From an uncultured virus (IMG/VR IMGVR_UViG_3300047510_001006) (Duplodnaviria; Heunggongvirae; Uroviricota; Caudoviricetes): a DNA stretch of 64,000 nucleotides. The stretch's first letter is position 1. The number at the start of each line of letters is the position of its first letter. The position numbers and the translations under genes are program-made. Below are positions 1,375 to 63,205 of this stretch, in pieces. Location: IMG/VR virus record IMGVR_UViG_3300047510_001006; one strand, given 5' to 3'. A model generated the notes under the pieces. That model made no database searches, was not told the DNA's origin, and saw only the letters and a program-made list of their open reading frames with translations.

Positions 1375-1564
1375 TTAGTTGTTTAAGGTCTGAGGCCTCA
1401 GTTATGTAGCCTTTAAAATCACCACTCACCATATAGTCGCCATCTTTTGTTTTATCTGCTGTTAACCAATCTCTACTGGTCAACTGCTTTTCGTAGAATG
1501 TAAACCCATCTTCTGTTTCATGAAGGGTAAATCCCAATTCGATTAGTTCATTTTTCTGTATCAT
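1340..1564 (-). CDS. Hypothetical protein
   Basis: 74-aa ORF in tightly packed block. Confidence 0.6.
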   Translation of the reverse strand: MIQKNELIELGFTLHETEDGFTFYEKQLTSRDWLTADKTKDGDYMVSGDFKGYITEASDLKQLIEIFNRANGTI

Positions 1565-1781
1565 GTATGTAAAATGTTATGTGTTTCTGTACATCTTCGT
1601 AGAAAGATATTTCTTTTCTGTTCTGCCACTCATTAAATTTAAGGGCTTCGATGATTTCTTTGACTGCTATAATCGAACAATAACGAGCGATTGTGTGGTC
1701 AATTGGTTCGTGTTCAAACATCCACAGCATGTCGCGGTAGATTTGAATTGCTTTTTCTTTTACTTCTTCTTGGTGTGTCAT
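1548..1781 (-). CDS. Hypothetical protein
   Basis: 77-aa ORF overlapping neighbours. Confidence 0.6.
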   Translation of the reverse strand: MTHQEEVKEKAIQIYRDMLWMFEHEPIDHTIARYCSIIAVKEIIEALKFNEWQNRKEISFYEDVQKHITFYIHDTEK

Positions 1782-2341
1782 GAGTTGTATTCATTAAATG
1801 ATGATATTGCTATTTTTTTGTCTGCTTGTGATAACCGATTCCAATACTTATGCTCCATAATTTTGTTTATTGAACTATAATACCCATTAGATATGTCGTC
1901 AATAAATCTTTCTATTGCGTAGTCTTCATTGTTTTCCCAAAGATACTCTTCGTAGGATACACTTACGTCTCTCGTTATTACTCCTTTGTTTACGCTAAAC
2001 CATCCACCAAAGTCCATCCCAGGTTCTTCGTAATCTGCGGTTATGTTTAAACCATAAATCTCAGATAACTTATGATAAAATGGCAGTACAGGACTCCAAG
2101 CACTAGAACCCGAAAGACTGGCCGATGTATCTGACAATCTACTCCAATCGGCTTCAAACCATTTACTACCAAATAGGTCATAGGTGTCTCCTTCTTCTTT
2201 TTCTTTACCCAATACAGTAAAGAGTGTTTCATACCATAGGTGACTTTGTTCTGTGGTTGCTTCTTTCAAGCGTGATTCGAGCAGGTCGAGCATCTCTTTA
2301 CTTCCTTCAAGCAATGCGTAATTATAACAATGATTTGCCAT
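1778..2341 (-). CDS. YubB/DUF1281 ferredoxin-like domain protein
   Basis: MANHCYN start, SAWSP and YEEPGMDFGG motifs. Confidence 0.65.
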   Translation of the reverse strand: MANHCYNYALLEGSKEMLDLLESRLKEATTEQSHLWYETLFTVLGKEKEEGDTYDLFGSKWFEADWSRLSDTSASLSGSSAWSPVLPFYHKLSEIYGLNITADYEEPGMDFGGWFSVNKGVITRDVSVSYEEYLWENNEDYAIERFIDDISNGYYSSINKIMEHKYWNRLSQADKKIAISSFNEYNS

Positions 2342-2360
2342 ATCTTATTCTTTTACACTA

Positions 2361-3535: not shown

Positions 3536-3570
3536 TAAAAATGGGGCCTCAGATTTCTCATCAACCCCAT
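3536..3570 (-). terminator. Possible intrinsic terminator (ATGGGG...CCCCAT followed by T-run on minus strand)
   Basis: Inverted repeat just downstream of the GATase gene; large loop. Confidence 0.4.
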
Positions 3571-3606: not shown

Positions 3607-4413
3607 TTAAAATAATGTTTCAGTATATTTCTTCATTGCTACACTATGTCCCTTGCACATAGCACACTGCCCTGCTTCAAGGTCATCACCATACCCTGTC
3701 ATCAACTCTATACCACAGTCACCACAATAGCCATGATCTATGCCGAATGATTTATTATAGGCAGCATCATCCATCCTATCATAGTAATCATTCCAATCCT
3801 TAGATGAGTAATCGGTAGTGGTTGACTTGGTGGTTGTGTTGGTGGTAGTTTTGAGTTGGTGTCCGTAGTAGCGTAGTGTTGGGTCAAGGTAAGACTTGTT
3901 ACTGAACCATGACTCACCATCCCAAACACCTGCTTTCTCATTGACAATAACAACATCGTTGTCATTAGACATAAAGATAAGTTTGTTGTATGAGCCAATG
4001 AACTCAGAGATAAGAGTAAGGACACTCTCAGACTTGGTAAAGTTCTTGGGCATATCTTTGAGGAACTCATTGAAGTGCCAAGTGTCAGAGAATTCTGAGA
4101 CCCCATACGAGAACTCTTGGATGATACCATTGTGTACAAACCCTACGGTCTCGTCGACAACGAATGGGTGGATGTTACGCTCGTCAACCACACCGTGAGT
4201 ACGAATACGGAAGTGCAGTACTACCTTGTCAGTAATCTTACGGACGGCTTGGTATTGTTTGAAGAATGCTTTGAATGATTTGAGTTGCTTGTAAACTTGC
4301 AACTGTCCATCTTGTACCCACAACATACCTGCGCCATCATCGTTTGATTCCCAGCAGTTCTGTAATGTTTTCTTAGTGAGTAAATCTTTGTTGTTGTAAA
4401 TTGCGATACACAT
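3607..4413 (-). CDS. Class II (Ntn) glutamine amidotransferase
   Basis: N-terminal MC, N.DG.G, HFR.RTHG, HPF, HNG and SDT motifs. Confidence 0.85.
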   Translation of the reverse strand: MCIAIYNNKDLLTKKTLQNCWESNDDGAGMLWVQDGQLQVYKQLKSFKAFFKQYQAVRKITDKVVLHFRIRTHGVVDERNIHPFVVDETVGFVHNGIIQEFSYGVSEFSDTWHFNEFLKDMPKNFTKSESVLTLISEFIGSYNKLIFMSNDNDVVIVNEKAGVWDGESWFSNKSYLDPTLRYYGHQLKTTTNTTTKSTTTDYSSKDWNDYYDRMDDAAYNKSFGIDHGYCGDCGIELMTGYGDDLEAGQCAMCKGHSVAMKKYTETLF

Positions 4414-6093: not shown

Positions 6094-6513
6094 GACTCTA
6101 TCTTTTTGTCCGTTTCCATATACACATAGCCAAGTAAATAAAAGGTAGATATGACCAATGAGAACACGGCTAAACTAAGGTGTTCATTAAAGAGAGCCAC
6201 TACAAATGCAGCGAAATGTAATAGGCACAGAATGAATAGTATATTTTTCATGCCCGATAGTATTTAGTTTCCGTAGTAACACCATACTTGAACGCCTTGC
6301 GTTCTTTGGGTTGAATTGCTGATGTTCTTGTTTGACCATTAACAGACTTCCGTTTGTAACGATCACGCAGTTCATTAATTTCTGCGGTTGTGAGGAATTT
6401 TACTTGTACCATTTGTTTTTAATTAGAGGTTTGGAAATGTGGCTATGTTTGACATACTGACAACCCCCACCCAATTAAGAGAGGGGGTCTCAGACCACAT
6501 TTAGAATTTACTT

Positions 6514-9236: not shown

Positions 9237-10217
9237 TTATTTTAATTGATTTTTCATTGCTCTTACTCCACGAGAATCGGTCTTCCAGGTAATCTTACCT
9301 CTTTCTCCGAATTCGAGGGTTTCACTTTCTTTCATTTCTGCCTTAATAAATGCACTGGCTAGTCTTACTTCTCCTTCTAGGTCTTTTATCTGTTCGTTTA
9401 GTGCTTTCATTCTGAGGCCCAAGTTGTAAAGTTCATCACTGCCCTTCATTGACTTGGCTTCACTCTGAGCATACTTCTGATTTAGGAACTTCTGATATGA
9501 CTCTGTTCCATCAGGCTCAGGAGCGTAAAGGTCTGCGTGTTCCATATCGTTACGAGCAGCGGTAACTCTGTCCCAAAATTCGGAAACTGCGCTGAGAATC
9601 TTCTCAACCATAAAGTCCATCTTCTCAATCTCGTAGACTTTGATGTTTCTTCCGTCTTCCAAGAAGGCCAACTCACCCTTGTCGATTTCCAATCCTATTA
9701 GATAGGTAGTCAACTGAGCGATGTATGATGGTGGTACTCCGCTGTCCCATTGTTTAGACGCAAAGCCACTGATTGTTTTAATCTCCAGTACTCCCAACAT
9801 ATTCTTAGGAATCAATTCTCCATCAAATGCAGGCTTACCTTCTTCGATGATAATCCTATCGGGAGATAAAAACAGGTGAGGGTATTTGTCGTTTACGATA
9901 TAGCCGGGGATTTCTTGAACGAAACGCTTTCTGTTTTTCTCATTATAGTTTTTGATGATTGACTCTTGGCTTCCTTCGTAGTAAGTCCACATGTCTCCTA
10001 CGAATGATTCAAGACGGTTACCCATGAACATAGCCATGTTTTCTTCTGTCTTGTTAGGTATGAGGCCCAACTTTTGATAAAACAGTTCTATTGATGACTT
10101 CCATGGGTTGAGTCCCAAGATTGTACCTACTTCCGAGGCACCGATGCCTGAACTACGATAGTTTAGCCAACCTTCGTAATCCTCATCTTTGTTTATGTTG
10201 ATTATCTTAAAACCCAT
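9237..10217 (-). CDS. YqaJ/lambda-exonuclease family recombination nuclease
   Basis: WL.YR..GIGASE, LGLNPW, SPD, LEIKT and Y..Q motifs. Confidence 0.9.
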   Translation of the reverse strand: MGFKIININKDEDYEGWLNYRSSGIGASEVGTILGLNPWKSSIELFYQKLGLIPNKTEENMAMFMGNRLESFVGDMWTYYEGSQESIIKNYNEKNRKRFVQEIPGYIVNDKYPHLFLSPDRIIIEEGKPAFDGELIPKNMLGVLEIKTISGFASKQWDSGVPPSYIAQLTTYLIGLEIDKGELAFLEDGRNIKVYEIEKMDFMVEKILSAVSEFWDRVTAARNDMEHADLYAPEPDGTESYQKFLNQKYAQSEAKSMKGSDELYNLGLRMKALNEQIKDLEGEVRLASAFIKAEMKESETLEFGERGKITWKTDSRGVRAMKNQLK

Positions 10218-11741: not shown

Positions 11742-11809
11742 CAAAGATATTACATTTTGTTGTTTTAGTGGAAAATATTTTATACTTGTCACTATTTTTT
11801 GTAAATTTG
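11742..11809. promoter_or_regulatory. Back-to-back divergent promoters at the strand switch
   Basis: TATCTTTG (minus, 11742-11749) and TAAATTTG (plus, 11802-11809). Confidence 0.6.
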
Positions 11810-12810: not shown

Positions 12811-12883
12811 TAAGTAATTATGGTATAATTGTCAAAAACTTGTATTCTTACAACTTTAGGCTTATATTTGTAATGTAGGCGAT

Positions 12884-15134: not shown

Positions 15135-16064
15135 ATGTACGATCAAATTGTAAAAGAAATTGAAGCGAACGAAAAGAAGACCGCTTTAGAGAATCCAACA
15201 CCAGTCCCAGCAGAACCAGCGGTTGAACCAACACCTGCTGCTGAACCTGTGGCCTCAGAACCTGCCCCTGCTGCCGAACCAGCACCTGCTGACGCAGCAC
15301 CAAAAGCATGGTATGAAGATGTTGAGTCTGACTCAAACGAACCAAAAACAAACGATGCCCCAAGTCCTCAAACTATTGTAGAAGAAGAAGACGAGGATAT
15401 TGCATTGATTAAAGAATTTAAAAAACAAGGCAAAACATTAAAAGAATTTGTAGAACAATACAAAGTTGAAGATGTTAGTAAATACACTGACACTCAAATT
15501 ATTGAAAAGGCCCTTAAAGAACTTGAGGGTTTTGAAGGTGATGAGTTCGACCAAGCAATGAGCGAAGTTGAAACCATGCCTTTATTCCAGAAGAAAAAAT
15601 TGATTCAGGAATACAGAGCGAAGTACAATGAAATGAACCAAGAGAAGTTGAAACAACTTTCTTCGAGTTCAAATAAAGCATCGGAAAAGCAAGTAGAACT
15701 AATGAATCGTTTTCAGACAGAATTAGGTCAAACAACGAATTCGTTGAAAGGACAAGAGAAGTACGGATTGACAATCACAGACGAAATGTCTAGTAAAATC
15801 AATAAGTACATCGCAGATGAAATTTCACTTACTCGTAGGGATGGCTCTATGGATGTCGACTTTTTAGTTGATGTTGCTATGTGGAGGCTGTACGGCAAAG
15901 ATGTCGTTAAGGCCAATGTCACAAAAGCAAAAAATGAGGGAAGGGAAGAAATGTTGCGTGCAACAACTAATCCTTCTACTGGAATGCCAAACTCAAATTC
16001 AAATCCTTCTTTTGGTGGAAATGATGCTGAGGATGCATTCAATGCGTACTTAAACAAAAAATAA
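15135..16064 (+). CDS. Putative capsid scaffolding protein
   Basis: Acidic with PAAEP repeats; lies between portal and MCP. Confidence 0.65.
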   Translation: MYDQIVKEIEANEKKTALENPTPVPAEPAVEPTPAAEPVASEPAPAAEPAPADAAPKAWYEDVESDSNEPKTNDAPSPQTIVEEEDEDIALIKEFKKQGKTLKEFVEQYKVEDVSKYTDTQIIEKALKELEGFEGDEFDQAMSEVETMPLFQKKKLIQEYRAKYNEMNQEKLKQLSSSSNKASEKQVELMNRFQTELGQTTNSLKGQEKYGLTITDEMSSKINKYIADEISLTRRDGSMDVDFLVDVAMWRLYGKDVVKANVTKAKNEGREEMLRATTNPSTGMPNSNSNPSFGGNDAEDAFNAYLNKK

Positions 16065-39527: not shown

Positions 39528-39580
39528 GCCTTGGGTCTCAGATATTGATATCCTGAGCAAAATTTAGTATCTTTGTCTTA

Positions 39581-45000: not shown

Positions 45001-47887
45001 ACAACCTGAAGCGTTTTTAGCAATACAAGGAAACAGAACTGATGATAACAATATCGGAGGGGTAAATTTTTACAACAATTCTAATTTTTTAGCTAGTGTT
45101 GCGGCAAGAAGGACAGGGGCTGACAACTCTGGAGCACTAACGTTTAATACATCAAATTCTGGAACAGGATCTGAAAAGATGCGTATCACCTCTGGGGGTA
45201 ATGTATTGATTGGAACGACTACAGATGTAGGCTCTAAACTATATGTTGATGGAACAATAAGAACTTCGGGGGCCTTGGTAAGTGGCGGGTTATTAGAGTT
45301 TACAGGAGGATGGTCTGCAAGTCCTTACAATCCATCATCATGGATTAGAGCAGCATCAGGAGTAGGCTTATTCTTAGTAAACAACAGTATCTCTAAATGG
45401 GCTGGATTTAATTCAACTAGTGATTTCATTGTAAATAGCGGAGACATATACGTTAGTTCTTCAAGCGGTAATGTAGGTATTGGTACTACTAGTCCTTCTG
45501 AAAAACTTGCAGTCGCAGGTAGGATAACATTATCTGGGTCTGAGTTTTCATTTAGTGGTGATGAAGATAAAAATATCACTGTATTTAGTAATAGGTTATT
45601 AAACCTTCGTACTAATGACATAACCAGGCTTACAATTACAGGATCAGGTAACGTAGGTATAGGAACTGCTAGTCCAGGATACGCTTTAGACGTAATTGCT
45701 AGGGCAAGCGGTGAAGGTGGAGTAAGATTTTGGAATAATAGAGCGGCTTCATCTACGGTTGATAGTGTTGCGATACATCTTAATGTAAGCAATACTGTTG
45801 GTATGACTGGTGGAAAAATAGTTGTTGCCGAGAACACCAATGACGCTTGGCCAACAAATATGCAGTTTTACATAAATTCCGCAGGCTCAAGTTATTCACC
45901 AGTTGAAGCAATGCGCATCACCAGCGCAGGCAACGTAGGTATAGGTACTACTAGTCCAAGCGCCTTATTTCACGTATCACAAGCATCAGCAGCTACAGTT
46001 CTAAGAATAGGAAACAATTCAAATTATGATCAATCTATCCTTTTTAATGGCGGTAATGATTGGTCGCTGGGTATGGATTATTCTAATTCAAACGCATTTG
46101 TTTTATCAAACTATTCTTCATTAGGAACAAATGACAGACTTGTAGTTACTACTGGCGGAAACGTAGGTATAGGCACTGCTAGTCCTACTGAGAAACTACA
46201 CATTGTTGGATCAAATGCACTTCAGATTATTCAATCAACTACAGCTGGTCAAAACTCAACACTAAAGTTTATAACTACAGCTAGGACGTGGGGGATTGGT
46301 GCCAATATGGGGCTTTCTAATTCAAATCTTGAAATATATGACTATACCGCTTCAGCAAACCGCCTAACAATAGATTCATCAGGCAACGTTGGTATTGGTA
46401 CTACTGCTCCAAGTGCAAAGTTAGAGGTAGCAGATTTTGGTGGAGCTACTATTAAAATATCAAATAAGACAGATGGTGGGCAAACAACAGGAGATTTAGT
46501 TGGAGCCTTAGATTATTACAGCTACGATGCGGATTATCCTCGTACAATGGCTTATGTTCGTTCTTATGTAACAGAACAGTTTGGTAGAGCAGCTGACCTG
46601 AGGTTTGCTACAACAGCAACAAATGCTGTAGCAGCGGAAGCAATGCGTATTACCTCCGCAGGTAACGTAGGTATTGGTACAACTAGTCCTAGTGCAAAGT
46701 TAGAAGTTGCAGGAAATATTAAAGGCCAAGGATTATACTACAATGGATCCACTGGTGGAGAATTACGATTAGATAATAGTTATGGTGGTGGAATAGGTTA
46801 TTATGCTGACGAAATTGGACATAATTTCTACACATGGATTAGCGGTGTAGGATGGGTTAACAAAATGGCCATTACAGATGCAGGCAACGTAGGTATAGGT
46901 ACTACTAGTCCAGTGTCAATAAGCGGATACACATCTTTAGATATTAATAATGCAACTAACGGTGGTCTTATTCAATTAAGCAGGGCTGGAGTTGGATTTG
47001 GGCAATTATACAATAATGCCTCCGAAGTACAGTTAAGAAGCATTGCGGCTGTTCCGTTGGTATTTGGCACCAACTCATCTGAAAAGATGCGCATCACCAG
47101 CGCAGGCAACGTAGGTATAGGTACTACTAGTCCAGGACAAAAACTAACATTAATCAATGGTACTTTTCAAATAGGTGGAACTTCAACTTTTTCTGATAAT
47201 GTAGAAATAGGTAGGGTTGGGAGTGACAACAATATGGCGTTTGCTACGGGAGGTACAGAACGTATGCGTATCACCGCTGGCGGCAACGTAGGTATTGGTA
47301 CTACTAGTCCTGCTAGTAAACTTGAAGTAAGAGGTACAGTAACATTTTTTGGCGACAGTAGTTTCCAACCTGGTAATTTAACTTTAACTGATGTTACTTC
47401 TGGAGGTAGTAGTTGGAGTATTTATAGTGGATTTCCATCACTCGGAGATTTTACAATTAGAGAAAGTGGTGTTGCTAACCATCTTACAATTAAAAAAACA
47501 TCTGGGAACTTCGGTATCGGAACCACTTCGCCTTCCTACAAACTACACGTTGAAGGCAATACATCGGGAATATCTATCTATGCGTCTCATGACATTGCAG
47601 CGTTCTCAGACATCACAGTTAAGAAAGAAGTTAAGAGGATTGAGAATGCCATCGAGAAGGTAAAAGAGCTGAACGGTTACACATACGTGCGTACAGATGA
47701 TGAGACAGGTACTAGAAGGGCCGGGGTTATCGCACAGGAAGTACAGAAGGTATTGCCAGAGGTTGTCTCTGCAAACCCTGACGGCACTCTGAACGTAGCG
47801 TACTCTAACATGATCGCACTTCTGATCGAGGGAATGAAGGAACAGCAGAAGGAAATTGACGAACTTAAGAAGCTACTTAAGAAATGA
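42056..47887 (+). CDS. Long tail fibre with ~23 GNVGIGTTSP repeats and C-terminal intramolecular chaperone (peptidase S74)
   Basis: Repeats counted in translation; SD...K, GVIAQEV..VLPE and V.Y.....LLIE..KE chaperone motifs. Confidence 0.85.
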   Translation: MRKFITDILVKASLGVEQNAYVLGTVGIGTISPAAKLHVEGTIYSPTYTSGGITINSGDFLFSAEGGGDGFQMDYYNGQMYLGNNAGTSWHMVMQDNGNIGIGTTSPTDKLQVVASTYNGITITTPDVATFKMRSTSGTTSWGFATTNLAANDFGIYQSNSGGGDPINAGTARLYFNGSGNVGIGTTAPISKLQVNGQFRQLYSRAFISNPLDSDGYAGHIIVNSNNANGDLAGIGLYTNSSYNAAAGLFALQESSTAASMVFYAGSNLATERMRITAGGNVGIGTASTVVNSLLNVAGGVNTTTGIIGYDTSDAFTFNGKTQPHYGFNLNPTGSSPIGISGYFGINFATNGTERLRIDYVGNVGIGTASPAYKLDVSVASQHVARFTSTTADNGGLIINKSNASYNPNILLQTGGNTKWYILNASNDSDKFQLYESTGTNPRFTLTQAGNIGVGTTSPVGKLSILVDGASTWSQYIQTPLTGNKRNSIGFHDYTGSNIAAILTDVNANNTADFGISVPNGSPRLVITSSGNVGIGTTSPYGRLELNGSGQTWPTAPAIRMWDSFNSKGWLVGSANNYTAGDFYIRTLPSVSGDPGAGQQEFTIKHATGNVGIGTTSPGAKLHVSQGASGNSLPSNAQAVFEYDANGGIAVSTPTGNAAGVYFPYSTSPYYAGIDRFETNLRFFSGDSERMRINASGNVGIGTTSPLSKVHIEDSSPILTIKGVGNGEFGLKITDGSANTGGITYNSNTGEQRIIGGQSYVFQTIYSGGSERMRITTGGNVGIGTTSPADKLQVQNGNLSLYSNSYGNTGLVRHFGTDSLEKYQQGLTTGGDFYQYTFSGLNHIFYTNNGFERMRITSGGNVGIGTTSPGSKLHVYSGSSGGTPYTEGITAESNSRVALNLLSGAANDSYVFFGNSSAGNAGYIGYENTANRLVLRSSDYVSLLDSTGEVIRIDGGNVGIGTTSPTLVNFGRELVISQITGGQPEAFLAIQGNRTDDNNIGGVNFYNNSNFLASVAARRTGADNSGALTFNTSNSGTGSEKMRITSGGNVLIGTTTDVGSKLYVDGTIRTSGALVSGGLLEFTGGWSASPYNPSSWIRAASGVGLFLVNNSISKWAGFNSTSDFIVNSGDIYVSSSSGNVGIGTTSPSEKLAVAGRITLSGSEFSFSGDEDKNITVFSNRLLNLRTNDITRLTITGSGNVGIGTASPGYALDVIARASGEGGVRFWNNRAASSTVDSVAIHLNVSNTVGMTGGKIVVAENTNDAWPTNMQFYINSAGSSYSPVEAMRITSAGNVGIGTTSPSALFHVSQASAATVLRIGNNSNYDQSILFNGGNDWSLGMDYSNSNAFVLSNYSSLGTNDRLVVTTGGNVGIGTASPTEKLHIVGSNALQIIQSTTAGQNSTLKFITTARTWGIGANMGLSNSNLEIYDYTASANRLTIDSSGNVGIGTTAPSAKLEVADFGGATIKISNKTDGGQTTGDLVGALDYYSYDADYPRTMAYVRSYVTEQFGRAADLRFATTATNAVAAEAMRITSAGNVGIGTTSPSAKLEVAGNIKGQGLYYNGSTGGELRLDNSYGGGIGYYADEIGHNFYTWISGVGWVNKMAITDAGNVGIGTTSPVSISGYTSLDINNATNGGLIQLSRAGVGFGQLYNNASEVQLRSIAAVPLVFGTNSSEKMRITSAGNVGIGTTSPGQKLTLINGTFQIGGTSTFSDNVEIGRVGSDNNMAFATGGTERMRITAGGNVGIGTTSPASKLEVRGTVTFFGDSSFQPGNLTLTDVTSGGSSWSIYSGFPSLGDFTIRESGVANHLTIKKTSGNFGIGTTSPSYKLHVEGNTSGISIYASHDIAAFSDITVKKEVKRIENAIEKVKELNGYTYVRTDDETGTRRAGVIAQEVQKVLPEVVSANPDGTLNVAYSNMIALLIEGMKEQQKEIDELKKLLKK

Positions 47888-49089: not shown

Positions 49090-49572
49090 ATGGCTATAAG
49101 AATAACAAAATCAATCGGTACCAACAGGGGTATTACCCAAAATGCTTACATTCGCATCGCTGATTATCAGATCAGTAAGTCTGGTAGCGCAAACTTCCGC
49201 ATCCAATTATACATGGACGAAGCGGCAGCAAAAGAGAACAGCATGATGATGGGGGCTCAGGCTCAAAACATTGAAATCGGAGAATCTTTGAACGTTTCTT
49301 TGATGAAAGAAGTAGAAGAGACCTACACTTACACTCAAACTGTACAAGAAGAAAAAGAGGTTGTAAAGACCTACACCAACGATGCAGGAGAAGAAGTATC
49401 TGAGACCGTTAAGGAAATGGTTCCAGTAGAAAAAGAAATGACAGGAACTCGCAAGAGTAACGTTATTGACTTGTCTCCATTGCAGGGTGTTGACATTTTC
49501 GCTTATGCTTATGGTAAACTCAAAGAAAAATTAATTTCTTTGTATGGTGCTACCAAAGTAGAAGATTGTTAA
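49090..49572 (+). CDS. Hypothetical tail-associated protein
   Basis: 160 aa; AY.KLK...EDC end. Confidence 0.55.
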   Translation: MAIRITKSIGTNRGITQNAYIRIADYQISKSGSANFRIQLYMDEAAAKENSMMMGAQAQNIEIGESLNVSLMKEVEETYTYTQTVQEEKEVVKTYTNDAGEEVSETVKEMVPVEKEMTGTRKSNVIDLSPLQGVDIFAYAYGKLKEKLISLYGATKVEDC

Positions 49573-49985: not shown

Positions 49986-50216
49986 ATGAAATTCTTTCAA
50001 ATTTTTAAAGACGAGCACGATAAGTTTTCCGCAAATCGTTTTGTAGGTATTCTTTGTGCTATTGCCCTGTGTGCTACTATGTATCACAATTCTTTTTCGG
50101 AAGAACACGTAGCCCCTGCTTCTATCTTGGTAGAGTGTGTGACTGCCCTTGCATTTGGTGCATTGGGTCTCGGAGCTGCTAATAAAATCTTTAAAAAGAA
50201 GAATGCCGAAGGATAA
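49986..50216 (+). CDS. Putative holin (2 TM)
   Basis: Two hydrophobic segments; basic C-terminus. Confidence 0.5.
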   Translation: MKFFQIFKDEHDKFSANRFVGILCAIALCATMYHNSFSEEHVAPASILVECVTALAFGALGLGAANKIFKKKNAEG

Positions 50217-50493
50217 GCCCATAGCGAAAACAACCAAAGGCAAGAACGCCAATTACCTCCCTACCAAAAGTGGAGCAGGTATGACGGCTAAAGGCGTGGC
50301 TGCATATCGCAAAGCAAATCCCGGATCTAAATTAAAGACAGCCGTTACTGGTAAGGTAAAGGCAGGTAGTGCAGACGCTAAGAGACGCAAATCATTTTGT
50401 GCTCGTAGTGCTGGTCAAATGAAAATGTTCCCAAAGGCGGCCTCAGATCCAAATTCACGTCTGAGACAAGCCCGTAAAAGATGGAAGTGCTAA
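50203..50493 (+). CDS. Small basic phage protein (DUF6321-like); start revised to 50203
   Basis: G.T.KG...Y...NPGS.L...V, RRKSFCAR and NSR...A..RW.C motifs. Confidence 0.65.
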   Translation: MPKDKPIAKTTKGKNANYLPTKSGAGMTAKGVAAYRKANPGSKLKTAVTGKVKAGSADAKRRKSFCARSAGQMKMFPKAASDPNSRLRQARKRWKC

Positions 50494-52176: not shown

Positions 52177-52521
52177 ATGAAAGATGCTTGTTACACTAAG
52201 GTCAAGGCTAAATACGCTGTATTCCCTTCTGCGAGGGCATCACAAGCAATTGCCAAGTGTAGAAAGTCATCTGGAAACGTAAAAAAGACAAAGGCGGGCT
52301 CAGATCTAAAAAGATGGGGAGCAGAGAAGTGGGTAGACACCAAGAGCGGTAAAGCCTGTGGTGCTGGTGGTAAGAACGAGTATTGCCGTCCGTCAAAAAG
52401 AGTATCATCAAAAACCCCAGTAACCAAATCAGAATTAAGTCCATCTAAATTGGCTGCAAAGAAAGCAGAGAAATCAAGAGTTGGTATGGGTAAAAGAGTT
52501 ACTAACATCAAAAAGAAATGA
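52177..52521 (+). CDS. Small basic phage protein (DACY.KVK...PSA.AS; L.RW..EKWVD; YCRPSKRVS)
   Basis: Motifs recognised from small basic proteins of aquatic phages. Confidence 0.6.
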   Translation: MKDACYTKVKAKYAVFPSARASQAIAKCRKSSGNVKKTKAGSDLKRWGAEKWVDTKSGKACGAGGKNEYCRPSKRVSSKTPVTKSELSPSKLAAKKAEKSRVGMGKRVTNIKKK

Positions 52522-52878: not shown

Positions 52879-54689
52879 AAAGAAACCTCTCTCCAAACCT
52901 TCATCGCTTTTCCATTCTGATACACTATCATTGGAATTGTTTTCTTCTGAGGCGCAGCATCAACTTTCTTCTTGAGTTTCTCCATCATATCCTTGTGATA
53001 GATTTCACAACCAACAATCGCATCCAACAAATCCGTATTCTCTGTGATGTAAACCTTCGCTTCTTCGATTATCTGCATTATATAAACAGACTCAAAGTTT
53101 TTCCTCAAGTAATCAATCAAGTAAGCATTTGCCCTCTCTGCGGTGTGGTCATTCTTATACCAACCGTAAGGTCTGTCTTTACTAAAGAATGTTTTGCCTA
53201 AGTTTCTTGGAGAAGGAGCCAGTAGATCTTGGCGATTGTTTGTTCGGTATGTATCCAAGATAACGCCACCTCGGTTAATCTCAATCATAACCTTAGCACC
53301 ACCAAAGTAATCCTGTAGGTTGATGTTGTTGCTCATGATTAAATCAGGGTCAGCAGCACGTTCTTTGTAGAATCCAACGTATGTGTTAGTGTCTAAGTTC
53401 TTGATTGCTATACAGTTATCAGAACCGTCTCCCAGCTTAGATGAAATGAAAGGAATCGGGTCCATCCCTGCGATGTATTTGTGATTGGGGTTGTATCTTT
53501 CCAAAAGTGTAAACTTTCCTTCTTTGTCAGGCTTAACTTGCAGTTCACCACTCATGTCCTTATAGATGATACATTTTTCAATCGGTGGGGGCTCAGATAA
53601 AATAATCCTCTCTTGTTGATTTAATTTATGAATAACATCCACAGGTAAAGCACCATGAGCAGTAGAAGAAAACACTTCATTAATATCCAACGGATACTGC
53701 TTGATAAAAGAATTCAAGAACGACTTATCTTCAATCCTATCTAACTTTTCACGAGTCTTATTAATCCACTCGGTCGCACCTTCAATATCAGAATAGCCAT
53801 TAGGACAGAAGTTAAGAATCTTCCCTGTCTCCCTACCTTCACCATCAATCTCAGGGGCTTCCATAATACCCATATTTCCAGGAAGGAATACAGTCAACAG
53901 ATTCAAGTTCTCTGCGTTCTTCCAAAGGTTGTTTGCGAGTTTCTGTCCGATAGATGTTGATTCACCAGCACTACCTCCAATTACAATGGGAGCAACCTTA
54001 ACGAATCCTGACTTTACGCTCGCCTGTGCAGATTTGTAAACTTGGTCTGCTTTGGGGTGAAGGAAAGCTTCGTCCAGAAAACAATGCATCGCACGATAGG
54101 CTTCCAATGCTGTTGGTGTATCAACCGTTTCACGAGTTACAATCTGAGAATCCAATCCGCTAATCTCACCAGTCTTTTGGTCTTTTACGCCCATGTGCAA
54201 ATATCCTACCTGACGAGTGGAGATTACGCTTGGCTTAATGTAAGGGTCAAGGTTGTCGTAAATTACACGAGTCTTTTCCTTGTACAAGTTCTCAAGACGA
54301 GTTTTATCCGCACTTGTAATCAAAGATGTAGAGCCTGGGTTTGTCATTGCAATCCACATAGGAGCTACTCCACCGAAGATTAATGAAAGACCAATCTCAC
54401 GACGCTTGCTGACAAACAAATCGTGGTTAGTTCTGCGGGCTTCTTCGTATGCCTCATAGATTAATTCATCTACATCTCGCCAAATGGGACGCTTTCTGAA
54501 TCCACGAGCATCTTTGATAAAGCACTGTGTGAGGGCAAAGTAATGAATACCAGTTAACCCATCTCTACCATCAATCCAATACTCCCTTTCATTCCCCCAC
54601 CAAATATCCTTTTCTTTCTTGGTTGCGTTTGGGTCAATGTTATATTTAGCAGCCCATATGTCGTATTCAAACCTTGATGCTTTTGTCAT
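52875..54689 (-). CDS. terL: Terminase large subunit
   Basis: Walker A SKRREIGLS, Walker B CFLDEA, nuclease GMDP...DGSD and TDLLDA. Confidence 0.85.
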   Translation of the reverse strand: MTKASRFEYDIWAAKYNIDPNATKKEKDIWWGNEREYWIDGRDGLTGIHYFALTQCFIKDARGFRKRPIWRDVDELIYEAYEEARRTNHDLFVSKRREIGLSLIFGGVAPMWIAMTNPGSTSLITSADKTRLENLYKEKTRVIYDNLDPYIKPSVISTRQVGYLHMGVKDQKTGEISGLDSQIVTRETVDTPTALEAYRAMHCFLDEAFLHPKADQVYKSAQASVKSGFVKVAPIVIGGSAGESTSIGQKLANNLWKNAENLNLLTVFLPGNMGIMEAPEIDGEGRETGKILNFCPNGYSDIEGATEWINKTREKLDRIEDKSFLNSFIKQYPLDINEVFSSTAHGALPVDVIHKLNQQERIILSEPPPIEKCIIYKDMSGELQVKPDKEGKFTLLERYNPNHKYIAGMDPIPFISSKLGDGSDNCIAIKNLDTNTYVGFYKERAADPDLIMSNNINLQDYFGGAKVMIEINRGGVILDTYRTNNRQDLLAPSPRNLGKTFFSKDRPYGWYKNDHTAERANAYLIDYLRKNFESVYIMQIIEEAKVYITENTDLLDAIVGCEIYHKDMMEKLKKKVDAAPQKKTIPMIVYQNGKAMKVWREVSF

Positions 54690-55172: not shown

Positions 55173-55528
55173 AATTCTAAATCAAATTCAAGCATGTCTC
55201 CCTCAAGTATTTCCCACTTCAAAGACTTAACTAGTTTGAAAAGGTTTGCCAATGCGTGTAGCTGTGCTACTGAAGGGTTGCTTACATATTTATACTCTCC
55301 GTTTACTCCTCCGTGAATTGCTAGGTGAATTTCGGTCTGAGGCCTCAGAACATGAATCTTTCCCTCTCTATCAAGAAAGTGAGTAAACAAATCTTCTTTG
55401 TGTCCTAATCCACCCATGTGATAAGTAGGAGTGTCAAGTTTAGGCTTCTTGCGAGCATACTCCAAGACCTCAGTAGCAACTAATCTATCTTCGGGTCTTG
55501 TGTATGTCCAATAGACGTAGAGTTTCAT
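55139..55528 (-). CDS. Degenerate T7-lysozyme/amidase_2-like protein
   Basis: HF.DREG.I...RP, I...GG and P.VAQL.AL..L pattern, but first Zn-ligand His absent. Confidence 0.4.
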   Translation of the reverse strand: MKLYVYWTYTRPEDRLVATEVLEYARKKPKLDTPTYHMGGLGHKEDLFTHFLDREGKIHVLRPQTEIHLAIHGGVNGEYKYVSNPSVAQLHALANLFKLVKSLKWEILEGDMLEFDLEFWKTAINLWRI

Positions 55529-57443: not shown

Positions 57444-59303
57444 TTACGACACCTCACATCCCGCACCACCACAAGCGGCTTGGTCATTGAGCTTTGTGTT
57501 GTCGCTAATTTCTACAATATTTGCGACATTAAGTTCAGATAGTCCCTTGCTTAATGTTGTGTATTGTTCCTCAGTAATCGTCTCAAATGGAGTCTGTTGG
57601 TATGAACCCAAATCCTCAGGAAGAAAAGAGAGACCGTTGTAGAAGTTTTGATTCTCCCACAACCACTCGCCTACTTCTGCCCACTCGTCTTGCTTGATGG
57701 TTACAGTTGCGCTTACGTTGTGTGTATTGTTTCCTTTCTTGTGTCCTGGATTAATCCAATTCTCATGTAAGTACTTTACCCTTTCCAAAAATGACAGGGC
57801 GGTCTCAGACTCTCTTGTAATTGCTCCCTTTGGTGCAGCAACAGGAATAGAGATAACCGATTGAGATTGAGGCTTCATAACATCGTCCTCAAGAAGTTCA
57901 GGATGGTAAAGAGAAAGGTATGTGTATATCGCCTCGTTTTTACCTACACGTATTCTACGAATGTAATACTCATCATGCCAAGCATGTACGCCCGATGATG
58001 TACCGAGTACCAAAGAAGAAGTTCCCGATGGTTTCACGCAAGTAATACGAGCGGCAGAGTTGATTCCAATCTTATTGGCAAACCACTCGTTTGCTACAGC
58101 AGCAAATCCTGCGGCCTCACCCAAATCTAATTTCATAACTGCTCCACTAGCAATACCTGTCATACCAATTCCAAGTAACGCTTCTTTCTCAGTAGTCTTT
58201 TGCCAAACTGAACGCAAGTAATGAAAATCAGTGTATGATGCCTGAAGAGTACCAATAACAGCAGCGTGATGAACACGAGTATTCAAATCGTCTTGATCAA
58301 CAATGTCAGAAGCGTTTACTTCTACCAAGTTACAAAACTGAAACGGTTGAAGTGCAATCTCACAACAAGGGTTAGTTCCCATATTTACATCGTTAGAGAA
58401 GTAAAACCCAGGCTCACCACTATTACTCAACTCAACCTTTTTCCAAAGATTTAAGAAAGACTCCTTATCAACTACTCCATTTCTCTCAATGACTGCGCTG
58501 TTGTTAGCACGACCACGCTGAGGATTCAACTCCCACCAATTACCAAACTTGCAGGTCAACATATCCTCATCATTATAATCAAACAAGGCAATCATTGCAG
58601 ATCTACGAATACCACCGCTCAATACAGCATCAGCAATGTGACAAAGGATATCGTGACAATCAACCGATGTCAATCTTTCTCCGTCTTGCTTGCGGTCAAA
58701 TATAGCCTCAATGTGAACTAAGCACATCTTCAACGGCTCAGGACCAGGAGCGATGCCTCCACCTGTTTTAATTGGTTCTCCCTTTGCGCGGATAGAACGG
58801 TAATCAAAGTTAGGCTTCCAACCACTCTGTCCAAAGTAAGCCTTAACCAATACTTTTACTGCATCTGCCCAACCCTCAAGAGAATCACCCACCAAATATC
58901 TACGGGTCTTTTCTGCTCTTTTGACTGCGGGAAGTTTGTCAATGTCGTGCTTTTGTACTGAGTACCCAACTCCTGTTCCACTCAATAGTAGGAACATCGT
59001 TTCGTTGAACGCTCTGTAATCGTCTATTGGCAAATAAGAACAGTTGAATAGTCTTGTGTTATTTAATTCGATTGGCTTTCCACCAAATTGAAGTGACCGC
59101 ATAGAAGGAAGTATCTTTTTATCGTAAACATACTGATATGCCCTTTCAATTGTTTCCGTGTGTTCGGGAAACTTGCGCAAGTGCATTTCTTTGTTTCTAT
59201 CCACGAGCTCTTTCCAAGTCTCTCTTCTTTGTTTTTCTGGATTGTACTTGGCATATTTCATCCAAACTGTAATGTCCGATAATATTTTATGTTCCGTATT
59301 CAT
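57444..59303 (-). CDS. nrdJ: Class II (B12-dependent) ribonucleotide reductase
   Basis: FNC, GGIRRSA, TNPCCEI, VKPSGT and C-terminal ACGGAGCE motifs; no beta subunit nearby. Confidence 0.9.
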   Translation of the reverse strand: MNTEHKILSDITVWMKYAKYNPEKQRRETWKELVDRNKEMHLRKFPEHTETIERAYQYVYDKKILPSMRSLQFGGKPIELNNTRLFNCSYLPIDDYRAFNETMFLLLSGTGVGYSVQKHDIDKLPAVKRAEKTRRYLVGDSLEGWADAVKVLVKAYFGQSGWKPNFDYRSIRAKGEPIKTGGGIAPGPEPLKMCLVHIEAIFDRKQDGERLTSVDCHDILCHIADAVLSGGIRRSAMIALFDYNDEDMLTCKFGNWWELNPQRGRANNSAVIERNGVVDKESFLNLWKKVELSNSGEPGFYFSNDVNMGTNPCCEIALQPFQFCNLVEVNASDIVDQDDLNTRVHHAAVIGTLQASYTDFHYLRSVWQKTTEKEALLGIGMTGIASGAVMKLDLGEAAGFAAVANEWFANKIGINSAARITCVKPSGTSSLVLGTSSGVHAWHDEYYIRRIRVGKNEAIYTYLSLYHPELLEDDVMKPQSQSVISIPVAAPKGAITRESETALSFLERVKYLHENWINPGHKKGNNTHNVSATVTIKQDEWAEVGEWLWENQNFYNGLSFLPEDLGSYQQTPFETITEEQYTTLSKGLSELNVANIVEISDNTKLNDQAACGGAGCEVS

Positions 59304-59313: not shown

Positions 59314-61167
59314 TTAAAAAAGTGTTAGTTGTTGTGGTTCAATTTCATCAATAATCTTTTTGCATTCGATACCGAAGAAATGATAATCTATTTGGTAATC
59401 TTCCCAGTTTTCTTTCTCCTCGAAGTAGTTACACTCTCGTGCAAATCCTCCTGCCAAAAGGCTATTGAGTCGTCCGTCAACATTTTGTTTGAACACGGAA
59501 TCACCCGTTGTAGTTGGAAGAAAGCGCATAACTTTGCCAAGATTCTTGATAACCTTTTTACCTTCCTCAACCGTGTGGACTTCTGCATGCCAACCCCTAG
59601 TCGCCTTATATCTTCCGAAAAAATCATAAATGTTACGTGCATCAAAGATAGTATTTTTTATTGGAATTTTAGATACGAAATACTTCTCTAACGCCTTTGG
59701 TACAATCAGGTAAGAGTTGTCTTTATGCCAGTCTTTTTCTGTTTCAAAGATGCCTTTTTTCTTGACCTTGCCTTCAACTGACTCGGCTAAATAGTTATTA
59801 ACATCTCGTATGACCATTTGTTTATACTTGCTGTCTTCAAGAATCAACCCCGTGAGTTTCATGAATCGCTGATTTATCTCCTCGATTCTTGCGATGCTGT
59901 TCTTGTGTACTCTTACTGTGAGACCATCTGTATTGATCTGTAACAGTTGAACATTCTTTACGTTTGTCATGTATGCCTCAGCCAGCATTGTAAGTAAGAG
60001 TTGTCCGTTAACTGTAATCCGATAGAAATAATACCTATCAAAGAAAGCACTTGTTGATTCTCCTGTCTTTCCAAAGATTCCATTCAGTGCAAGTTTTAAT
60101 CCTGCTTGAACAACATCATCTCCTGCCTTCTGTGCCTCCACTCGGTCATCGAATATTCTTTTGTAAGTATTGATGAATACTTCTTGAGGTATGTGCTTGG
60201 GGTGAAAGTTATTTGTGATGGCGATGTTTGGGTAATAAGACTTTACGTCAAAGTCAATAATCTCATGCTCGTCATCGGCTTCGTATTTGCCCGCAGGAAT
60301 ACATCCGTGAATGCCGCCTACTCCGTAGTGAAAGTGAAAGCCCTTGAATATTACGGTGTGTTTGAACTTTGTATCCTCGGTTACTACGGTTCTCTTAATT
60401 GAATCCAATAGGTATTTGAATTCTTTATTCTGAAACTTGATGTAAGGAATAACACAATCTTCTAAGTAAACAGCCTTGTCATAGCGAACTTTTTCTTTCA
60501 AGTCTTTCTTATCTAATCCACTGGCTGCCTTGATGTATCGTAGGAAGATTTCTTCTCCTATTGAAACATCGGGTCTGTTCAAGAAGTTAGCTTTGTACAT
60601 CTTTGAGAATGCACGACGAAACTCTATCTTCTCACTACAAAGGAAGTAGAACTTACGAGTAGAAAGAACATCGTTTAAGTTGTAAGACAAAACAGATTCA
60701 ACTTGGTCTTCGGTAATCTCCTGCTCGTGGCTGATGGGCATCTCTTGCACATTGTACCAACCCATAGCAACCTGTAAGGACTTGAGCGAGGTACGTCTAG
60801 CCTTGTTGTTGTAGTGATTAATTAAGTAGAGGTCGAGTTGATTCTTCATCTTAGTCCGTGGCTTTTCGTTATCTTCCTTTGTGATAAACTGTTGCACGAA
60901 TATGTAAATCGAATATGCTACATTGTGACCCGGCATGTCCTTGTATCTGTCGAGGTTGTCAACGATGTGGTCCAACACAACAGCATCAAATCCTACGTTA
61001 TTAAAGCCAACCATTGTCATTGGCTGATCGAGATACTCAACCAACTTTTCTGCATCGTTATTCCAAGGCGAGATTGTGAATACGACTGGGGTCTCAGAAT
61101 CCTCTTCTATATCCGTATAGGAGAAGAAGTTCCTCATTGTTTCAATATCATAGATTACTGTTCTCAT
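59314..61167 (-). CDS. Family B DNA polymerase with 3'-5' exonuclease
   Basis: YDIET, GFNN..FD and YN.ND (exo); DVKSYYP, KLALNG.FGK and NTDG (pol). Confidence 0.85.
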   Translation of the reverse strand: MRTVIYDIETMRNFFSYTDIEEDSETPVVFTISPWNNDAEKLVEYLDQPMTMVGFNNVGFDAVVLDHIVDNLDRYKDMPGHNVAYSIYIFVQQFITKEDNEKPRTKMKNQLDLYLINHYNNKARRTSLKSLQVAMGWYNVQEMPISHEQEITEDQVESVLSYNLNDVLSTRKFYFLCSEKIEFRRAFSKMYKANFLNRPDVSIGEEIFLRYIKAASGLDKKDLKEKVRYDKAVYLEDCVIPYIKFQNKEFKYLLDSIKRTVVTEDTKFKHTVIFKGFHFHYGVGGIHGCIPAGKYEADDEHEIIDFDVKSYYPNIAITNNFHPKHIPQEVFINTYKRIFDDRVEAQKAGDDVVQAGLKLALNGIFGKTGESTSAFFDRYYFYRITVNGQLLLTMLAEAYMTNVKNVQLLQINTDGLTVRVHKNSIARIEEINQRFMKLTGLILEDSKYKQMVIRDVNNYLAESVEGKVKKKGIFETEKDWHKDNSYLIVPKALEKYFVSKIPIKNTIFDARNIYDFFGRYKATRGWHAEVHTVEEGKKVIKNLGKVMRFLPTTTGDSVFKQNVDGRLNSLLAGGFARECNYFEEKENWEDYQIDYHFFGIECKKIIDEIEPQQLTLF

Positions 61168-62857
61168 CGAATGTTAAATAGCTTTGTGAATAAAGGATAT
61201 CAAGTAGTCGTTCAAATCTACCATCTTCCGAATAGCGTCCTGTTAATTTATCAAAATTGTATTCTACTGAACCAAGTTGTCCTCTGAAGTGATACTTCAT
61301 CTTCTGTACGTGTAACGATACAGTGTGGTCTTGTGCTTGGTCTGTGTAATCTCTATGTATTGCAATACCCACATCAGGAGCATTGAAGAAGTGAGAACTC
61401 TGTGCAATATCATACAGCCTCGGTACAGCATACTGACCATTGCTCTTCTCCATCTTGCGAGGGTGAGCAGCCAATGTGATATTGATGTTGTATTTCAACG
61501 CTGTCTTTTTCATCTTACGAAGCATCTCACCGATTCTTTCGTGGGCACTCTCTTCTTTGCTTTGAGTGTCGATGTAGTTGAACGGGTCAATACACAAACA
61601 ATCAATTCCGTATCGTTTAATCATCGTAACGGTCAAGTCTAATATGTGATTGAGGCTAAACTCTTCCATCTCTTCTACGTTAAAGAAGAAGAAGTGCTTG
61701 TCCAACTTAGCCATGATAACCTTAATCTCTTCGGGTGTTATAGTTGACAACGCTTTACCTGAGATTTGTTCAGCCATACGAGAAAGTTTGAGAGGTGCTA
61801 CGTTCTCAGGTGAGAAGATTGCAAACTTCCAATCAGATATAATCGCAAGACGTGCGTACATGTAGTCCAACCAAGTACTCTTACCTGAACCTGGCACGCC
61901 CGTAAGTACTACGAGTTCACCCTTGTTCCAAGTCAAGTGCTTGTCTGTCTGAGTCATAGCGACAGTTTCACCTCTTGGGTAGCCACTTTTTGAGAAGTCA
62001 ACAACTTGCTGAATATAATCAGACGAGCGTGCTATCTCCTTAATTGGGATGGGTTGGGCCTCAGAATATAACTTCTTAATGGCTTCTACTCCGTGTGCCT
62101 TGAGTACATCATTAGCATCCTTAGCATCTTCAGGGAACTGAATTATAAAAACATTTGATTGATCAAATCGTCTCGCAAGGTCTTCCTTGAGTTTTTGTCC
62201 CGGAGTATCATTGTCAGCCGCAATAATAATCTTTTTGTTTTCAAAATGAGAATACGTATCATCTAACCATTGTAAATTGTTAACTCCTTTGCTTGCTCCG
62301 TTGGGACAAGAGACAGCGAAGGGATATCCTGCTTGATACCAAACCATTGCTTCTTCTTCTCCTTCACAGATAATAATCTCACTGCTGTCTTTGATTCCAT
62401 TTAGATTGTAGGGGATTTTCTTTGCTCCACTAACCATCTTGAACTTCTTGTCTGACGTTTTGAATTTTATATTTACCAATTCGTCTCCGTCATAGTAATT
62501 AAAGCAAATGACCTTGTGTTTCTGCTCATCTTGTGGCATCCACTCAACTGACATCGAGACACCAAAGGCATCTACAGTTTCCTGCGAAATGCCTCTGGAC
62601 TCGAAGTATTTAGTCACTCTGCTATCGGGTGCATCTTTCTTGGGTTCGGGCTTGGTGTATTGCTTTACATTAGCTACAGAACCTTTCTTTTGGCAATGGT
62701 GACACTTGAATAGTCCCTCATCTATGTTTACAGAGAGTGATGGGTCTGAGGCCTTCTTTCTTGTGTGGGCACACCAAGGACACTGTGTCTTGATGATTCC
62801 ACTGAAGTGTCCTTTAGTATCAATGCCGGCTTTTGTTAATTCAGATTGGTAACTCAT
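61148..62857 (-). CDS. T7 gp4/Twinkle-like primase-helicase
   Basis: Zn finger CPWC..CHHC; TOPRIM EGE, DND and KDAND; Walker A GVPGSGKS; IDPFN and AHPRK. Confidence 0.9.
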   Translation of the reverse strand: MSYQSELTKAGIDTKGHFSGIIKTQCPWCAHTRKKASDPSLSVNIDEGLFKCHHCQKKGSVANVKQYTKPEPKKDAPDSRVTKYFESRGISQETVDAFGVSMSVEWMPQDEQKHKVICFNYYDGDELVNIKFKTSDKKFKMVSGAKKIPYNLNGIKDSSEIIICEGEEEAMVWYQAGYPFAVSCPNGASKGVNNLQWLDDTYSHFENKKIIIAADNDTPGQKLKEDLARRFDQSNVFIIQFPEDAKDANDVLKAHGVEAIKKLYSEAQPIPIKEIARSSDYIQQVVDFSKSGYPRGETVAMTQTDKHLTWNKGELVVLTGVPGSGKSTWLDYMYARLAIISDWKFAIFSPENVAPLKLSRMAEQISGKALSTITPEEIKVIMAKLDKHFFFFNVEEMEEFSLNHILDLTVTMIKRYGIDCLCIDPFNYIDTQSKEESAHERIGEMLRKMKKTALKYNINITLAAHPRKMEKSNGQYAVPRLYDIAQSSHFFNAPDVGIAIHRDYTDQAQDHTVSLHVQKMKYHFRGQLGSVEYNFDKLTGRYSEDGRFERLLDILYSQSYLTFDENSNL

Positions 62858-62860
62858 AAT

Positions 62861-63205
62861 TTATATTATGAATTCGCGTTGTCCTCTTACGGGAAACTTC
62901 CAAGTTTTGATTGCTGCTTTCCAGCTTTTCATTTTGTTCTTCCCAATCATCCATCCTTTTGATTCATAGAAGTTCCAAAACTTCTCTGCTTCTTGTTGGT
63001 AGTTTAGTACGTTTAATGAGTTGAGATACAGCGCAATCTCTTCCATTGTTGGTGGCTGAAATCTTTTGGTTAAGGTCTCAGATTCCTCTATCTTTTCAGA
63101 CAAAGAATAAAACAGGTCATCCAAGTGAGACCACTCTCCTTTTGTTTCTTTCTCAATCAATCCCTTCAGGATTAATTTAATAATTTGATAGTCTTCGTTT
63201 TTCAT
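62861..63205 (-). CDS. Replication-associated protein (F.PPT..E...FYESKGW.IG...MK.WKAA domain)
   Basis: Motif recognised from phage replication-region proteins; directly upstream of primase-helicase. Confidence 0.55.
   Translation of the reverse strand: MKNEDYQIIKLILKGLIEKETKGEWSHLDDLFYSLSEKIEESETLTKRFQPPTMEEIALYLNSLNVLNYQQEAEKFWNFYESKGWMIGKNKMKSWKAAIKTWKFPVRGQREFII

Follow-up and report, generated by a model that had tools for sequence, protein, structure and literature searches.

Dispersed oriented words, among them Chi, KOPS, DNA uptake sequences and nick sites, are among the few records that DNA handling leaves in genomes. The present analysis concerns such a word, GGBCTCAGA (with B for C, G or T), in the DNA of an uncultured virus of the Caudoviricetes (IMG/VR record IMGVR_UViG_3300047510_001006), of which a stretch of 64,000 nucleotides, hereafter called the window, was analysed together with the genomes of related phages. 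It is a very clean case, with near-invariant letters, a density that is kept while the sites themselves turn over, and dialects, in an abundant uncultured branch of the crAss-like phages. If the reader of the word is viral, the family would be an example of a phage with a Chi-like or nick-like system of its own, which would offer a handle on replication and packaging; should a host enzyme be the reader, the word becomes usable as a probe for finding the host.

Several described systems resemble this one in part. The stoperators of Cluster A mycobacteriophages are dozens of short asymmetric sites that lie in and between genes, with an encoded cognate repressor and with an orientation that follows transcription in both arms, a rule that the word studied here fails to obey in minus-strand blocks. 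Lambda exonuclease shows sequence-specific pausing at a single site in vitro, a precedent for an enzyme of the RecE/lambda-Exo type responding to a short word on the strand that it tracks, although a single pause site is unlike a selected array that extends over a whole genome. In lambdoid phages, Chi enrichment accompanies the absence of a recombination module (PMC12315714). The same paper credits the lambdoid phage LLS with 23 Chi sites, one per 1.86 kb where 0.85 would be expected in total, 20 of the 23 in one orientation, and the Pseudomonas phage MD8 with 32 sites all in the same orientation; neither phage has a recombination module, and both rely on host RecBCD (PMC12315714). Packaged DNA can also carry nick sites, as in phage tf, whose 46 kb contain 14 sites, all on the same strand, that share a nine-letter asymmetric consensus with degenerate positions; relatives of tf use a version changed by one letter, and the enzyme responsible is not known (PMC3517423).

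The family to which the window belongs shares with the Chi-rich phages the presence of about 20-30 copies of a short asymmetric word, around one per 2 kb where fewer than one would be expected, most of them in one orientation and gained by point mutation across genes. It differs from them in that their word is the Chi of the host, abundant in the host chromosome. With the nick sites of tf/LUZ24-like phages, phiKMV-like phages and T5 it shares a lineage-specific asymmetric consensus scattered through a podovirus genome and one-letter dialects, whereas tf-type sites occupy similar positions among relatives (PMC3517423), and the positions in this family turn over.

Enrichment of the word and selection on DNA

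A first-pass annotation of the window, made from the sequence alone, had listed 21 copies of GGYCTCAGA (with Y for C or T) as a minimum, against fewer than one expected. Exact search confirmed every coordinate and strand of that list and added one further copy, GGTCTCAGA at 49399 (-), which brings the total to 22 (16 on the + strand, 6 on the - strand), and the expectation held as well, since dinucleotide-preserving shuffles of the window (n = 100) contain on average 0.54 copies, with a maximum of 5. The GC content of the window, taken in 4-kb steps, is 0.37-0.41. In an unbiased ranking of k-mers, GGYCTCAGA is the top dispersed word, and all higher ranks come from the tandem repeats of the tail-fibre gene. 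Counts of single-letter variants give C (13), T (9), G (4) and A (1) at position 3 and near-invariance at the remaining eight positions; because position 3 takes C, T or G but hardly A, the true word is GGBCTCAGA. It is present in 26 copies (19 + and 7 -), that is about 0.4 copies/kb or one per 2.5 kb, an enrichment of about 40-fold. In a literature search for the four strings of the word, the matches listed were unrelated as judged by title.

The enrichment is not removed when coding is held constant, which was the check that the first-pass annotation had named. With codons shuffled among identical amino acids (500 shuffles per null), 5.3 +/- 1.1 copies (maximum 10) are found if the shuffle is made inside each gene and 4.8 +/- 0.9 (maximum 8) if it is made across the whole window, about 5 against the 26 observed. 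About four of the copies in these nulls are sites fixed as non-coding by the gene calls, which are simple picks of open reading frames (ORFs), at least one of them wrong (50439 was treated as non-coding), so that about one genic copy is expected where 22 are observed. The site at 50439 in fact falls within a genuine + strand gene (50149-50493), which leaves three intergenic sites; counted as 3-4 of the 26 sites in about 4% of non-coding DNA, intergenic sites are over-represented about three times.

Sixty-nine four-residue peptide contexts in the window are able to encode it and 22 do so. When amino acids are shuffled within proteins (n = 300), the contexts for a + strand copy inside minus-strand genes stand out, with 17 against 5.7 expected and none of the 300 shuffles reaching 17, while the other three classes of context are at chance level; the protein sequences of the minus-strand genes have evidently been altered to accommodate the word. 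The signal of the word resides in the DNA. As to reading frames, xxG-GBC-TCA-GAx is used at 11 of 14 sense sites in the window and TCT-GAG-VCC at 7 of 8 antisense sites, whereas relatives carry the word in all three sense frames and within many different encoded peptides. The earlier claim that copies fall in different frames and in intergenic DNA thus stands for the intergenic copies and, in relatives, for the frames, but the frames of the window are not evenly spread.

Family restriction, orientation and turnover

The family was collected from viral contigs by a polymerase search (12 loci) and a capsid-profile search (63 loci), and its genomes measure 62-72 kb. The search of related phages that had been proposed in the first-pass annotation shows the word to be enriched across most of the family: complete or near-complete relatives have 15-27 copies, with 0-1 copies of the reversed word as control. 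Individual counts are 25 in G001 (the relative that is aligned with the window below), 19 in G413, 24 in G414, 15 in G415, 27 in each of G420 and G421, 18 in G422 and 26, in 57 kb, in G425. A low-copy subclade (G416-G419 and G423) holds 1-6 copies per genome, and density across the family forms a continuous range. Dialects are seen in the letters before the word. The clade of the window has T-G-N there, with T at -3 and G at -2 in roughly 65% of 133 instances, the clade of G420-G425 has T-T-(G/C) and G413 has G-G-G, and the final A of the word is weaker in some genomes. In G413 (L345-L348) there is a 16-letter form, with a G run before the word and AACC after it, in about eight copies. Three copies of this form are intergenic and follow AT-rich stretches, and in one variant a perfect hairpin of 7 bp precedes a T-rich run, an arrangement resembling a terminator.

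For the strand counts, 17 family genomes were oriented by the capsid gene. Pooled, they give 186 + and 84 - copies (69%, with 31% on the other strand), counts that are not independent, the genomes being related, and that overstate the evidence; the window taken singly has 19:7 and G001 20:5. In six genomes the sites were divided by gene strand, with 54 sense and 14 antisense in plus-strand genes, 27 sense and 29 antisense in minus-strand genes, and 11 + against 1 - between genes. According to the amino-acid context analysis, about two sense contexts are on offer for each antisense one, and with these splits both ease of coding and a preference for the + strand are therefore needed. The preference varies along the map, for which the portal gene served as zero point in seven complete, word-rich genomes: 77 + and 14 - in the first 60%, 32 + and 32 - in the remaining 40% (0.6-1.0), and 6 + and 12 - in the last 10%, beside the divergent junction.

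The window and G001 are colinear with 80% identity, and of the 21 window sites with an aligned counterpart, 11 have the same sequence in G001, more than the local 9-mer baseline of 0.21 predicts (P = 0.0017). Retention in relatives was another of the checks named beforehand, and together with the codon- and amino-acid-preserving nulls it bears out the first-pass view of the word as a selected dispersed signal. Starting from G001 instead, 11 of its 15 aligned sites recur unchanged in the window. Sites lost between the two genomes differ by one to four substitutions and no indels; sites arise by point changes. Lineage-specific genes also bear the word, as in the non-homologous tail-fibre region of G001, which has four copies. 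Comparisons in a second clade give 4/12, 4/8 and 4/13 aligned sites conserved against baselines of 0.06-0.10, and in the most distant pairs conservation is at baseline (0-2 of 5-9 aligned sites), each genome still having 16-27 copies. An even spacing of the sites is not supported: the coefficient of variation is about 0.9, near random, and only G421 is clearly more even. Near-random spacing and turnover at kept density point to selection on the number of sites, not on their place.

Enrichment is restricted to this family among the collections searched. Among viral contigs, 72 stretches contain the 14-letter double site, in which two inverted copies overlap, and the enriched ones all resemble the window's DNA except L077, a T7-like fragment of 4,270 bases that carries four sites, in sense with a block of RNA polymerase, single-stranded DNA-binding protein (SSB), endonuclease and primase genes. 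L077 was rejected as an unrelated carrier: in its 35 relatives, 292,576 bases in all, 24 sites occur, for the most part a single shared one per relative, and because they are not enriched L077 is likely a chance cluster. Metagenome contigs with the double site amount to 120 loci with 15 extra copies against 8.7 expected, one of the loci being a family member. In about 40 of these contigs (L362-L440, GC 0.35-0.43) an unrelated interspersed repeat, whose flanks are conserved, has the palindrome at its core, and no enrichment in single copies of the word is seen in them. In the genome collection, at least 120 matched stretches have 13 extra copies against 13.4 expected.

Two other repeated words stand out in genomes of the low-copy subclade. 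ACCTTYGGT in G418 was considered as a second word and rejected, for the roughly 14 copies of ACCTTYGGTTG (L327, ~16.9-17.9 kb) are dense, with spacings in multiples of three, and form a local coding repeat array and no dialect. TGCCGG occurs 52 and 38 times in G416 and G417 (L321-L324, L333-L336) against 3-18 times elsewhere in the family, with no strand bias, and further words that contain CCGG are elevated in other members of the subclade.

What may read the word

An over-frequent word that lies mostly on one strand in a whole family leads us to infer that something reads it along the viral DNA. We tentatively favour a Chi-like polar signal read by a DNA-tracking enzyme, a choice made because density, partial polarity, turnover and indifference to place match Chi. 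An enzyme moving one way along the phage DNA would meet the oriented word and act differently from that point; pausing, an end to degradation, or transfer of the DNA to recombination-dependent replication are conceivable, and copy number and orientation would then count while exact positions would not. The candidate core of such a reader would be the YqaJ/RecE-type exonuclease with the SSB, or the gp4-like primase-helicase. Because exonuclease, SSB, polymerase and primase-helicase are near-universal in the family, and the flanks of the word differ by clade, the replication and recombination core of the phage is a more likely reader than RecBCD or AddAB of the host. A stronger form, in which the family's own exonuclease and SSB or its primase-helicase would read a polar word written by the virus itself, a virus-autonomous 'Chi' by which viral DNA is recognised as self and recombination-dependent replication is guided, is doubtful; the flank dialects would in that case reflect joint evolution of the word and its reader.

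The distribution of genes over the 17 genomes bears on these candidates. The exonuclease and the SSB-like protein (217 residues, with an acidic EDDDLPF tail at its end) are present in 17/17 genomes, the polymerase in 16-17/17, and the primase-helicase, whose four-cysteine zinc domain is intact, in 16/17. The core of 15-17/17 genomes also includes both terminase subunits, a small protein beside the primase and a serine recombinase. No accessory gene separates word-rich from word-poor genomes, the poor ones being essentially one clade; the poor clade lacks the reductase and a few small genes, but so does the rich genome G415. A protein with a DnaA_C-like helix-turn-helix (HTH) domain (844-1374, -; 8e-07, below the Pfam cut-off), whose start lies 15 bases from the near-palindromic double site at 1389-1401 upstream of it, was rejected as reader since it is limited to the closest relative, and an Arc-like gene is likewise limited to a clade. 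The NinG-like HNH protein (19219-19818) was rejected as well, since two rich genomes lack it and poor ones have it. No family-wide HTH protein or repressor was seen by Pfam or PHROGs, with many small core proteins unannotated. Recombinase sites have a paired half-site architecture. The serine recombinase (about 231 residues, Resolvase 1.2e-37 plus the start of a Recombinase domain; 15/17 genomes; in G001 at L083:772-1464, -, just past the right end of the window) was rejected because only one convergent pair of half-words with a spacer was found. It adjoins the small core protein, the primase-helicase and the polymerase in the replication block, an unusual location, and is an odd core gene for phages that otherwise look lytic. 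The small core protein (62861-63205) has no Pfam family and no sequence relative in the PDB, its 114 sequence relatives are all unnamed, and its model (mean predicted local distance difference test score, pLDDT, 71.6) gave no fold match at E <= 0.001.

Several observations weigh against the Chi-like reading. No reader of the word emerged from the analysis. The family has an exonuclease and an SSB, unlike the Chi-enriched lambdoid phages, and the word has 9-12 informative letters, against eight in the Chi words given for those phages (PMC12315714). The 69% strand bias, itself pooled from related genomes, is below that of LLS (20:3) and of MD8. Because the 69-127-base repeats at the contig ends look like overlaps left by assembly, they give no reference for the orientation of the word relative to an entry end. 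For a host reader, the bacterial genomes searched are unfavourable; they are samples, and the following counts hold for those genomes only. In 401 evenly drawn Bacteroidota genomes the word is not enriched, the top count being 117 copies in 4.5 Mb against 133 of the reversed word, and the maximum density is about 0.04 copies/kb against 0.4/kb in the phage. The 12-letter form has 0-8 copies in each of 381 Flavobacteriales genomes, and the 14-letter double site is present in 2 of 401 Pseudomonadota genomes. Abundance of the word throughout the genomes of a bacterial lineage, the mark of a DNA uptake sequence, was not seen in the genomes searched. The phage capsid profile had 0 matches in the 401 Bacteroidota genomes, and look-alikes of the ribonucleotide reductase in a protein atlas are viral. 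Of the marks of the Chi class, over-representation and a majority orientation are seen in the family, a matching enrichment in a bacterial chromosome did not show up in the genomes searched, and the lack of a recombination module does not apply, the family having its own exonuclease and SSB. Of the Chi-like proposal in the first-pass annotation, the manner of working is kept as the best reading, and a host Chi is unsupported in the genomes searched.

Other readings account for part of the same evidence. The words could be recognition sites of a phage-encoded nicking activity, packaged DNA then having site-specific single-strand interruptions as in T5, phiKMV-like phages and tf, and the format is indeed like that of tf; the family likewise has a lineage-restricted word with flank dialects, and it is a podovirus family with convergent gene blocks. 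However, all nick sites of tf, T5 and the phiKMV group are on one strand (PMC3517423), against 31% of sites on the opposite strand here, and at the three overlapping inverted pairs in the window nicks on both strands would break the duplex. The excerpts of that paper (PMC3517423) and of the Andromeda preprint name no nickase family. The NinG-like HNH gene does not track the word, and a nicking activity appears rather unlikely overall. A phage DNA-binding protein, whether a global regulator, a roadblock or an architectural protein, might instead use the words as dispersed binding sites, on the model of the Cluster A stoperators or of the KorB operators of plasmid RK2. The number of copies is similar to that of stoperator or KorB arrays, the left flank in the window's clade partly mirrors the right half of the word, perfect or near-perfect inverted double sites, three in the window, are selected, and the excess of intergenic sites is in keeping with operators. 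Yet the mirror symmetry fails in clades with a T-T-S (S for G or C) or G-G-G flank, orientation ignores transcription in minus-strand blocks, a symmetric dimer would yield no genome-wide strand bias, and the DnaA_C-like and Arc-like candidates are confined to the window's closest relatives; binding sites of this type are an unlikely explanation.

In a priming reading, the words would be preferred start sites for the gp4-like primase-helicase, read on the lagging-strand template. A + bias of 77:14 in the long rightward arm that reverses to 6:12 in the last 10% would fit forks that leave the divergent junction, the word acts strand by strand and recurs on average every 2.6 kb or so, and 16/17 genomes encode the enzyme with its zinc domain intact. 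But the strand switch is not clean (32:32 over 0.6-1.0 of the map), spacing is irregular, and the low-copy subclade retains the same primase architecture. DnaG-type primases read about three letters, against 9-12 in this word, and the trinucleotide core of T7-type primases is read by the zinc domain. That trinucleotide is present in the T variant only, at 9/26 sites, and for six further invariant letters beyond it we know of no precedent, all of which makes priming quite improbable. A by-product without any reader, produced by biased mutation or repair, or by preference for certain peptides or codon patterns, would explain the very uneven frames in the window and its common peptides, [A/V/G]-S-[D/E] and S-E-[A/T/P]. 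It is contradicted by the amino-acid- and codon-preserving nulls, by the use of all frames and many peptides in relatives, by the existence of intergenic copies, by near-invariant positions and by conservation above the local baseline, and is very hard to sustain.

Sites in the window and the carrier phage

The three palindromic places reported in the first-pass annotation are real, two copies overlapping in each on a GGCC centre. The palindrome CTGAGGCCTCAG is found at 1390-1401, 31490-31501 and 55337-48, and the full 14-letter double site at 55336-55349. At the left end of the window, an exact GGCCTCAGA at 1389-1397 (-) overlaps a + copy that matches in eight of nine letters, within the first of these palindromes. 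It is followed by an exact GGCCTCAGA at 3545-3553 (+), intergenic and flanked by minus-strand genes, an exact GGTCTCAGA at 4094-4102 (-) in sense within gene 3607-4413, and an exact, intergenic GGTCTCAGA at 6486-6494 (+). The copy of GGCCTCAGA at 9411-9419 (-), in the YqaJ/RecE-like exonuclease gene, is conserved in G001, and an exact GGCCTCAGA at 15251-15259 (+) is in sense. Conserved in G001 are also GGCCTCAGA at 21270-21278 (+), in sense, GGTCTCAGA at 24742-24750 (+) in the gene for the muzzle protein, GGCCTCAGA at 29334-29342 (+) in the gene for the 3056-residue protein, and GGCCTCAGA at 31494-31502 (+), which belongs to the second palindrome.

The zones that had been described as free of the word are so, with no site between 31494 and 38217 nor, across the tail fibre, between 40402 and 49399. 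Between these zones, GGTCTCAGA at 38217-38225 (+), GGCCTCAGA at 38880-38888 (+) and the intergenic GGTCTCAGA at 39534-39542 (+) are all conserved in G001. They precede two copies of the G variant GGGCTCAGA, a form added to the Y form of the word, at 40199-40207 (-) in antisense and at 40402-40410 (+) in sense. The neighbours at 38217, 38880, 39534 and 40199 are separated by 663, 654 and 665 bases, and spacing of this type is seen again in G001 (42268, 42931, 43587 and 44239). The tail-fibre gene (42056-47887, +; 1,943 residues) is built of repeats, with ten-letter words that occur 14 times on one strand; it has no copy of the word, and the unrelated fibre region of G001 has four.

Beyond the fibre, the exact GGTCTCAGA that the first list lacked (49399-49407, -) is followed by GGCCTCAGA at 50439-50447 (+), in sense in gene 50149-50493, with an inverted six-letter partner 12 bases downstream. 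Two more copies of GGGCTCAGA, at 52296-52304 (+) and, in antisense in the large terminase gene, at 53589-53597 (+), are conserved in G001. The perfect 14-letter double site consists of GGCCTCAGA at 55336-55344 (-) as its left half and GGCCTCAGA at 55341-55349 (+) as its right half, and is retained in many close relatives. In antisense are GGTCTCAGA at 57801-57809 (+) in the ribonucleotide reductase gene, GGTCTCAGA at 61090-61098 (+) in the DNA polymerase gene (conserved in G001) and GGCCTCAGA at 62057-62065 (+) in the primase-helicase gene; the latter gene also has GGCCTCAGA at 62745-62753 (-) in sense, and the last site, GGTCTCAGA at 63074-63082 (+), is in antisense in gene 62861-63205.

The window is most of the genome of an uncultured crAss-like podophage of about 67 kb. 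Its genes point rightward in the central part and leftward towards either end, and include those for a portal, a capsid protein, the crAss 'muzzle' protein (Pfam 6.9e-45), a virion protein of 3,056 residues, the large terminase, a family A polymerase, the gp4-like primase-helicase, a class II ribonucleotide reductase and the YqaJ/RecE-like exonuclease (PHROG 1.4e-61, Pfam 6.9e-17). No close deposited phage was found, the best capsid matches being Crassvirales at 27% identity, and among the genes recognised there is no methyltransferase. Assembly overlap is the probable origin of the 69-127-base 'terminal repeats'. At 50149-50493 (+), where greedy ORF picking gave two minus-strand ORFs in place of a + strand gene, the gene is real, as indicated by third-position substitutions relative to G004 at 85% DNA identity, and its product has a basic C-terminal region like that of the neighbouring DUF5872 gene (52177-52521). 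Many start codons are preceded at 5-14 bases by TANNTTTG boxes, mostly TATATTTG, for example at 12863, 19832, 28129, 37317, 39568, 26009 and 11802 on the + strand and at 11742 and 11165 on the - strand, and ribosome sites of the GGAG type number 41 where 31 would be expected, hardly an enrichment. Boxes of the TATATTTG type with few GGAG sites are what we take to be the Bacteroidota style of expression, the sole hint at a host.

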